This document shows, piece by piece, positions 30,001 through 33,000 of a stretch of 46,566 nt of DNA. This stretch comes from Escherichia coli (GTDB lineage Bacteria > Pseudomonadota > Gammaproteobacteria > Enterobacterales > Enterobacteriaceae), in assembly GCF_003334355.1 (NCBI RefSeq), contig NZ_QOWP01000029.1. One strand, written 5' to 3'. Made by a program: the position numbers. Position 1 is the stretch's first letter. Each line of letters starts with the position of its first letter.

Positions 30001-33000
30001 CGACGCCATTCGACAGCGAAGGTGTGCGCACCGAGCGTCGCGATATTATTAAAGATGGCATCCTGACTCAGTGGCTGCTGACCAGCTACTCGGCGCGGAA
30101 ACTGGGGCTGAAAAGCACCGGACATGCGGGCGGTATTCACAACTGGCGGATTGCCGGACAAGGGCTAAGCTTCGAACAAATGCTCAAAGAGATGGGCACC
30201 GGGCTGGTGGTGACGGAGCTGATGGGCCAGGGCGTGAGTGCCATTACCGGTGATTATTCCCGTGGTGCTGCGGGCTTCTGGGTAGAGAATGGCGAAATTC
30301 AGTATCCGGTGAGCGAAATCACCATCGCAGGTAATTTAAAAGATATGTGGCGCAATATTGTCACCGTCGGTAACGATATTGAAACACGCAGTAATATACA
30401 GTGTGGTTCTGTGCTGTTGTCGGAGATGAAAATCGCCGGGCAGTAAAAAACTGGCGCGACCTGCCGCGCCAAATCTTCATAATAAAAAAGGAAGTGAGCA
30501 ATGCGTAAAAGCCTGTTAGCTATTCTTGCAGTCTCCTCGTTGGTATTCAGTTCGGCGTCGTTTGCCGCTGATCTTGAAGACAATATGGAAACCCTCAACG
30601 ACAATTTAAAAGTGGTCGAAAAAGCCGATAACGCGGCGCAAGTCAAAGACGCGTTAACGAAGATGCGCGCCGCAGCGCTGGATGCGCAAAAAGCGACGCC
30701 GCCGAAGCTTGAAGGCAAATCACCGGACAGCCCGGAAATGAAAGACTTCCGCCACGGTTTCGATATTCTGGTCGGTCAGATTGACGACGCGCTGAAGCTG
30801 GCAAATGAAGGTAAAGTAAAAGAAGCGCAGGCTGCCGCAGAGCAACTGAAAACGACCCGCAACGCCTATCACCAGAAGTATCGTTAATTCCTCATTTCCC
30901 TGTTGCCTGCACTCAGGTAACAGGGAACTTATCATCGCAAATGATGCACCACCTGATTGCTGCTGCCGCGCCAGATCAGGGAAGGGTCTTTTAAATCCTG
31001 CACAAATTTGCCGTCGACCAGCACGTTAATCAAATCAACAACCTGCATTTGCGCAGCGTTGAGTTCGTCGAGTTTATAGCCTGTCCACACCCAGATGTCT
31101 TTACCCGGACACTCGGCGCGGATGCGTTGTACCAGTTTCAGAATATCCGGCACGTTTTGCGGATGCAGCGGATCGCCGCCGGAGAGGGAAATACCCTGGC
31201 GTTTGATGCGAGTGTCATTCAGATCGTTAATGATCTGGTCTTCCATTGCTTTAGTAAATGTCTGACCGGAATTTACCCGCCATGTGCTTTTGTTATAGCA
31301 ACCGGGGCATTCATGAACACACCCGGAGACAAACAGGGTGCAGCGAGTGCCGGGGCCGTTGACGATGTCGACAGGATAGTACTGATGATAATTCATTGTT
31401 TCGCCTGGCTTATCAGTCCGCGTATAGGATGCATCCGGTAATCAACGCCTGATGCGACGCTGTCGCGTCTTATCAGACCTACAATCGTTGTTGCCATGTA
31501 GGCCGGATAAGGCGTTTACGCCGCATCCGGCATTTGCTTAACGTAGAGTGAAGATTAACCTATCTGCCCATTCCCCAAATGTTTAACGCGGCGCTTAACT
31601 TCTTCCTGCTTACCGGCGTTAAATGGACGTGCATCCGGGCTACCTAAATATCCGCACACGCGGCGAGTCACCGACACACGGGAGGCGTCATGGTTACCAC
31701 ATTTCGGGCAAGTGAAGCCTTTGCTGGTGCACTCGAACTCACCGGTAAAGCCACACTCGTAGCACTCATCAATCGGTGTATTGGTGCCGTAATACGGTAC
31801 ATGCTGATAGCTGTAATCCCAGACATCTTCCAGCGCCTTCAGGTTGTGCTGAATGTTTGGATACTCGCCGTAGCAAATGAAACCACCGTTCGCCAGCGGC
31901 GGGTAAGGCGCTTCAAAGTCGATCTTGTCGTACGGGTTCACCTTCTTCTCCACATCGAGGTGGAAACTGTTGGTGTAGTAACCTTTATCGGTCACGCCCG
32001 GCACCACGCCAAACTCAGCAGTATCGAGACGGCAGAAGCGGTCGCACAGGTTTTCACTCGGCGTGCTGTAGAGACTGAAACCATAACCCGTTTCTTCTTT
32101 CCACTTATCCACTGCCTGACGCAGACGTTCAACAATGGCGATACCTTTCGCGCGAAGCTGCTCGTTGTCGTAAACATGCTCGCCGCCGAACAGCGCGTTA
32201 ATGGTTTCGTGGATGCCGATGTAACCCAGCGAAATAGACGCACGACCGTTTTTGAAGATTTCAGAAACATCATCGTCAGCATTGAGACGCACGCCACAAG
32301 CACCTTCCATATAGAGGATCGGGGCCACGCGCGCTTTCACGCCTTCGAGACGAGCGATACGGGTCATCAGCGCCTTACGTGCCAGCACCAGACGTTCATC
32401 CAGCAGCTTCCAGAAGGTGGCTTCATCGCCTTTTGCTTCCAGAGCAATACGCGGCAGGTTCAGGCTGATCACGCCGAGGTTGTTACGACCATCGTGGATC
32501 TGCTCGCCGTTTTCATTTTCCCACACGCCGAGGAAGCTGCGGCAGCCCATCGGGGTTTTAAACGAACCGGTGACTTTCACTACCTGATCGTAGTTCAGGA
32601 TATCCGGATACATGCGCTTGCTTGCGCACTCCAGCGCCAGCTGTTTGATGTCGTAGTTCGGATCGCCTTTTTTATGGTTCAGACCATCGCGAATCGCAAA
32701 CACCAGTTTCGGGAACACCGCAGTTTTACGGTTTTTACCGAGGCCTGCGATACGGTTACGCAGGATAGATTCCTGAATCAGGCGCGATTCCCAGCTGGTG
32801 CCCAGACCAAAACCAAAGGTTACAAACGGCGTCTGACCGTTGGCGGTGTGCAGGGTGTTTACTTCGTACTCCAGCGACTGGAAGGCATCGTAGCACTCTT
32901 TAATGGTACGAGAGTTAGCGTAGCCTTCGGCGTCCGGGATGTTCCACTCTTCTGCGGTCTTGCGATGTTTGTTGTAGCTGGCGGTGACAAACGGTGCCAG

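Follow-up and report, generated by a model that had tools for sequence, protein, structure and literature searches.

The closest described system is cybC of Escherichia coli itself, the gene for soluble cytochrome b562. The protein, CybC (UniProt P0ABE7; PDB 256B and 1QPU), is the parent of the BRIL fusion partner, and the original cloning of the gene was reportedly described by Nikkila in 1991 and Trower in 1993. That Met7 and His102 of the mature protein are the axial haem ligands is established knowledge of structure 256B. In MG1655 cybC is listed as a pseudogene, with a function given as unknown (PMC3349551). According to published work, non-K-12 strains express b562, and the gene is cryptic in K-12. 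Expression of cybC is higher in REL606 than in MG1655 (PMC3446290), native b562 has been purified from, or co-purifies in, BL21-type strains, and it is a contaminant of anti-BRIL Fab preparations from B-type strains (PMC13041623). The protein is also visible by mass spectrometry in ST131 and other clinical isolates (PMC6561927).

The gene considered here lies in a stretch of 46,566 nucleotides of E. coli (assembly GCF_003334355.1, contig NZ_QOWP01000029.1), called the window in what follows. It is almost certainly an ordinary chromosomal gene, from a natural E. coli outside the K-12 lineage, and codes for a soluble cytochrome b562 precursor of 128 residues (Table 1). The initial annotation had described it as full length and provided with a signal peptide of 22 residues, and both points hold. 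In the ORF listing no other in-frame start comes between the preceding stop and its ATG. The product covers the whole of Pfam model PF07361, Cytochrom_B562 (E=6.7e-34; residues 24-128; model positions 1-102 of 102), and reaches 193.7 bits against the NCBIfam equivalog NF011632, 'cytochrome b562', for which the curated cut-off is 130 bits (profile positions 1-127 of 127). It matches PDB chain 9tmp_A, a full-length chain of 128 aa, from end to end (E=1.4e-76), and the mature chains 256b, 1qpu and 1apc, of 106 aa, align to precursor residues 23-128 (E=2.7e-63). Because of the family and PDB matches (PF07361, NF011632, 9tmp_A) a chance ORF is clearly excluded.

Table 1. Positions of cybC, its parts and its surroundings in the window.
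Feature	Position	Strand	Remarks
pmbA (tldE)	29094-30446		upstream of cybC; its stop codon is followed by a 54-bp spacer
G+C-rich hairpin	30452-30471	+	in the pmbA-cybC spacer; dG -13.6 kcal/mol, z -3.9
'Empty' site	30470-30480		11 bp; about 139 bp in most E. coli, including a 128-bp ERIC-like imperfect palindrome
Shine-Dalgarno-like AAGGAAG	30488-30494	+	6 nt 5' of ATG; read from sequence
26 bp missing from K-12	30494-30519	+	GTGAGCAATGCGTAAAAGCCTGTTAG; four-way alignment and coordinate check
cybC CDS	30501-30887	+	ATG start, 128 codons and TAA; precursor of soluble cytochrome b562
Signal peptide	30501-30566	+	residues 1-22; predicted cleavage Ala22/Ala23
Mature cytochrome b562	30567-30884	+	106 residues; alignment to PDB chains
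Haem axial ligand Met7	30585-30587	+	mature numbering; precursor residue 29
Haem axial ligand His102	30870-30872	+	mature numbering; precursor residue 124
Hairpin with 14-bp stem	30896-30927		between the stop codons of convergent cybC and nrdG; from folding
nrdG	30932-31396	-	convergent with cybC; followed by nrdD
SDR oxidoreductase gene	44372-45163	-	intact; 263 aa
Part of an IS1 copy	46387-46566		end of the window

As the solved mature chains begin at precursor residue 23, the signal peptide should comprise 22 residues. A cleavable N-terminal signal peptide that leaves residue 23 as the first of the mature protein is also what its composition predicts: there is an n-region MRK, a hydrophobic h-region (GRAVY 2.47) and a c-region SSASFA, and positions -3 (Ser) and -1 (Ala) of the cleavage site satisfy the -3/-1 rule. 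The apoprotein left after cleavage has, for the window allele, a calculated mass of 11708 Da, compared with 11780 Da for the canonical allele, and both haem ligands are invariant across five aligned cybC alleles. From what is established for b562, the signal peptide would direct the precursor through the Sec pathway and signal peptidase I would cut past Ala22. With 98% identity to the KO11FL allele and the above match to 256b, 1qpu and 1apc, the 106-residue mature protein would then probably fold in the periplasm as a four-helix bundle, bind one haem b without a covalent bond, Met7 and His102 being the ligands, and work there as a one-electron carrier.

In K-12 the picture is quite different. 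The MG1655 genome (NC_000913.3) has an annotated 'pseudogene cybC b4236' at 4459488-4459855, between tldE (pmbA) and nrdG. The initial annotation had described the K-12 copy as a truncated pseudogene and proposed an alignment with that locus as its own check; b4236 is indeed 5'-truncated, and the two loci are not identical. A four-way alignment of the window, K-12 MG1655, E. coli W (KO11FL) and O157:H7, the last two having an annotated intact cybC, separates two events, a widely shared insert of 128 bp and a deletion of 26 bp found in K-12 only. The deleted segment begins with the last base of the Shine-Dalgarno-like motif and runs through the spacer that follows it, the ATG and codons 2-6 to the opening base of codon 7. 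The K-12-type junction (...AAAAAAGGAA joined to CTATTCTTGCAG...) does not occur in the window, which keeps the 26 bp and therefore does not carry the K-12-type allele. In the pairwise alignment the 5' end of the K-12 gene could be read as swapped for about 155 bp of foreign DNA, a reading ruled out once KO11FL and O157:H7 were added.

The locus and flanking genes are alike in K-12 and in the window, and over residues 8-128 the two differ at 3 of 121 positions (97.5% identity), whereas K-12 has neither a start codon nor the positively charged n-region of the signal peptide. In the K-12 gene no ATG, GTG or TTG that might serve as an alternative start precedes the in-frame TTG of Leu14, the frame upstream of Ile8 reaches a stop, and a start at Leu14 would leave no signal-peptide n-region. 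With no usable start before Leu14, no exportable protein can be made. The deletion, taking out the spacer, the start codon and the positive beginning of the signal peptide, would thus have left a cryptic remnant. Over residues 8-128 this remnant encodes exactly the sequence found in the intact protein of O157:H7, and the two genes differ there by just 2 synonymous changes, so that the lesion is recent, lineage-specific, and derived rather than ancestral. We found no open-access paper describing the 26-bp deletion itself.

The initial annotation went further and assigned the window to a lineage that keeps a functional cybC. That the gene is intact stands, and it is probably functional, to judge from its sequence and from the published work on other strains. 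The rarity that this implies has to be given up, as the intact start region is present in 5069 of 5426 complete E. coli genomes. The K-12 deletion junction occurs in 355 of them, and 2 have neither. Such allele counts were made with queries of 54-65 bp, designed so that no sequence other than the intended junction or allele offers the 28-base seed of megablast. Sixty evenly sampled records among the 355 bearing the deletion are all chromosomes of K-12 size (4.52-4.77 Mb), and every recognisable strain name in this sample is that of a K-12 laboratory derivative (MG1655, W3110-type, BW25113, DH5alpha, DH1, C600, J53, MC4100, TG1, S17-1, NEB strains, O16:H48). An intact cybC is the normal state of E. 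coli, broken by the 26-bp deletion only in the K-12 laboratory lineage, as was already known. An annotation transferred from MG1655 would wrongly label the gene of the window a pseudogene; for cybC, K-12 is the outlier. With its intact gene, the window is confirmed as DNA of a wild-type E. coli other than K-12, which carries little weight beyond annotation hygiene.

One might also imagine that a K-12-like lesion was ancestral, and that the lineage of the window repaired it by re-acquiring an intact cybC through recombination. The flanks of the window are mosaic when set against its closest genome, and K-12 and close relatives of the window, such as ETEC H10407, are phylogroup A strains, which would suit such a history. 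This scenario is nevertheless effectively refuted, and its probability negligible: the junction is restricted to 355 genomes, and in the sample of 60 all names that can be recognised belong to K-12 derivatives; the identity of the K-12 remnant with the O157:H7 protein marks the lesion as recent and derived.

Lesions of another kind do exist. In OY754853 an IS66 insertion cuts off the 5' end of cybC. In the mouse strain E. coli S1 (NZ_CP010226.1), where the cybC region is 100% identical to that of the window, an IS1 (434-1117 of the comparison sequence) sits in the pmbA-cybC spacer just 5' of an intact cybC. This spacer, like the start of the gene itself, seems to be prone to insertion.

Over 22 kb around cybC the closest genome is that of E. 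coli O121 strain 201805972, 99.9% identical, in which cybC (WP_001232246.1) is annotated at coordinates matching exactly those of the window ORF. Numerous isolates of human, animal and river origin, ETEC H10407 among them, are 99.4-99.7% identical over the same stretch. Compared with the KO11FL allele, which is the canonical P0ABE7 sequence, gene, locus, length (128 and 106 aa), signal peptide and the Met7/His102 pair are the same; the proteins are 98% identical and differ by Ile39Val (mature I17V) and Asp72Gly (mature D50G). Both E. coli W (KO11FL) and O157:H7 have 128 intact codons, with a start region and signal peptide identical to those of the window, and O157:H7 has Ser122 and Lys125, like K-12. 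At the codon level the window gene shows 9 synonymous and 3 non-synonymous differences from K-12, and 7 and 2, respectively, from KO11FL; this predominance of synonymous differences fits purifying selection.

The Gly72 codon is found in about 1478 of the 5426 genomes (about 27%), and the Val39/Gly72 allele is a common natural one. Gly72 (mature Gly50) is unlikely to be harmful, since the residue belongs to the loop that joins helices 2 and 3 and so large a share of genomes has it. Residues 39, 72 and 122 have been described as polymorphic in b562, with a mature-size peak at m/z 11783 in clinical isolates (PMC6561927).

The order pmbA-cybC-nrdG-nrdD is conserved, as seen in the window ORFs and in the annotations of MG1655, KO11FL, O157:H7 and O121. 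What varies is the spacer in front of cybC. Where the window has its 11 bp, K-12, KO11FL and O157:H7 all align with about 139 bp, and the full pmbA-cybC spacer is 182-183 bp long in KO11FL and O157:H7, with the ERIC-like element upstream of the gene, versus 54 bp in the window; the 128-bp palindrome is likewise present in K-12 and missing from the window. The 139-nt stretch (positions 838-976 of comparison sequence L001) forms a single long, imperfect hairpin (dG -62.5 kcal/mol, z -8.3). It may be an ERIC/IRU repeat, which it resembles. Repeats of this family are intergenic imperfect palindromes about 127 bp long, and an enterobacterial genome has several of them. By blastn the element has 1-6 places per genome, with a median of 3; a search for other copies within the window returned chance-level matches only.

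The ERIC-like insert is not the cause of the inactivation in K-12, since in W and O157:H7 the cybC that follows it is intact. The empty-site junction, that is the short spacer, is found in 1513 of the 5426 genomes, a number close to that of Gly72 (each about 27-28%), and the two appear linked. It is conceivable, if rather improbable, that presence or absence of the element, split at about 72% and 28% of genomes, alters cybC transcription and creates lineage-specific levels of b562. If so, the short spacer would go with read-through from pmbA, and the long one with independent expression or with expression controlled by RNA structure.

A consensus promoter scan, which is an insensitive method, found no sigma-70-like promoter in 30250-31050. 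Transcription of cybC in the window could come from read-through from pmbA, or from a weak promoter inside the end of that gene. The G+C-rich hairpin of the spacer sits right past the pmbA stop codon, with a terminator-like call on the minus strand only. The AAGGAAG motif probably acts as the ribosome-binding motif of cybC. Beyond the gene, the hairpin that separates the convergent stop codons of cybC and nrdG folds on both strands (dG -23.3 kcal/mol and z -6.7 on the plus strand, -19.5 and -4.3 on the minus strand), and on neither of them is it followed by a T-run; it might terminate transcription from both sides or serve as an RNA-stability element. Rfam gives no match in or near cybC.

From these features one could argue that the ORF, though intact, is silent in this lineage, a well-preserved copy that is never expressed: the 54-bp spacer is without the ERIC-like element, the scanned region is without a promoter-like site, and a stable hairpin stands between pmbA and cybC. 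We hold this to be very unlikely. The scan can easily miss promoters, and the ribosome-binding motif is undamaged. This empty spacer is shared by 1513 genomes, and cybC is annotated as intact in all sampled rows; the substitutions between alleles are mostly synonymous. In addition, the detection of b562 by mass spectrometry in ST131 and other clinical isolates, cited above, speaks for expression in natural strains. An ordinary gene for an exported cytochrome b562 remains by far the better account.

As for the rest of the window, the O121 strain 201805972 matches it over 8323-44790 at 99.6%. Collinearity over its whole length is ruled out by blastn, the left end being mosaic and the position of IS1 different: positions 1-934 have no collinear match in that genome, and 935-8334 match at 98.05% with an offset of 63 bp. 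In O121 201805972 the SDR oxidoreductase gene adjoining bdcR is interrupted by an IS1, and in the window this gene is intact. The window itself breaks off within a copy of IS1 that is 99.4% identical to the IS1 at 44792-44971 of comparison sequence L006. Rfam matches above the gathering score lie at 22082-22160, 28323-28400, 9445-9567, 12919-12976, 13056-13098 and 38449-38564; the families concerned are naRNA4 (two matches), ES239, STnc450, ES036 and the Mg2+ riboswitch (mgtA leader), and all of these look like ordinary E. coli features.
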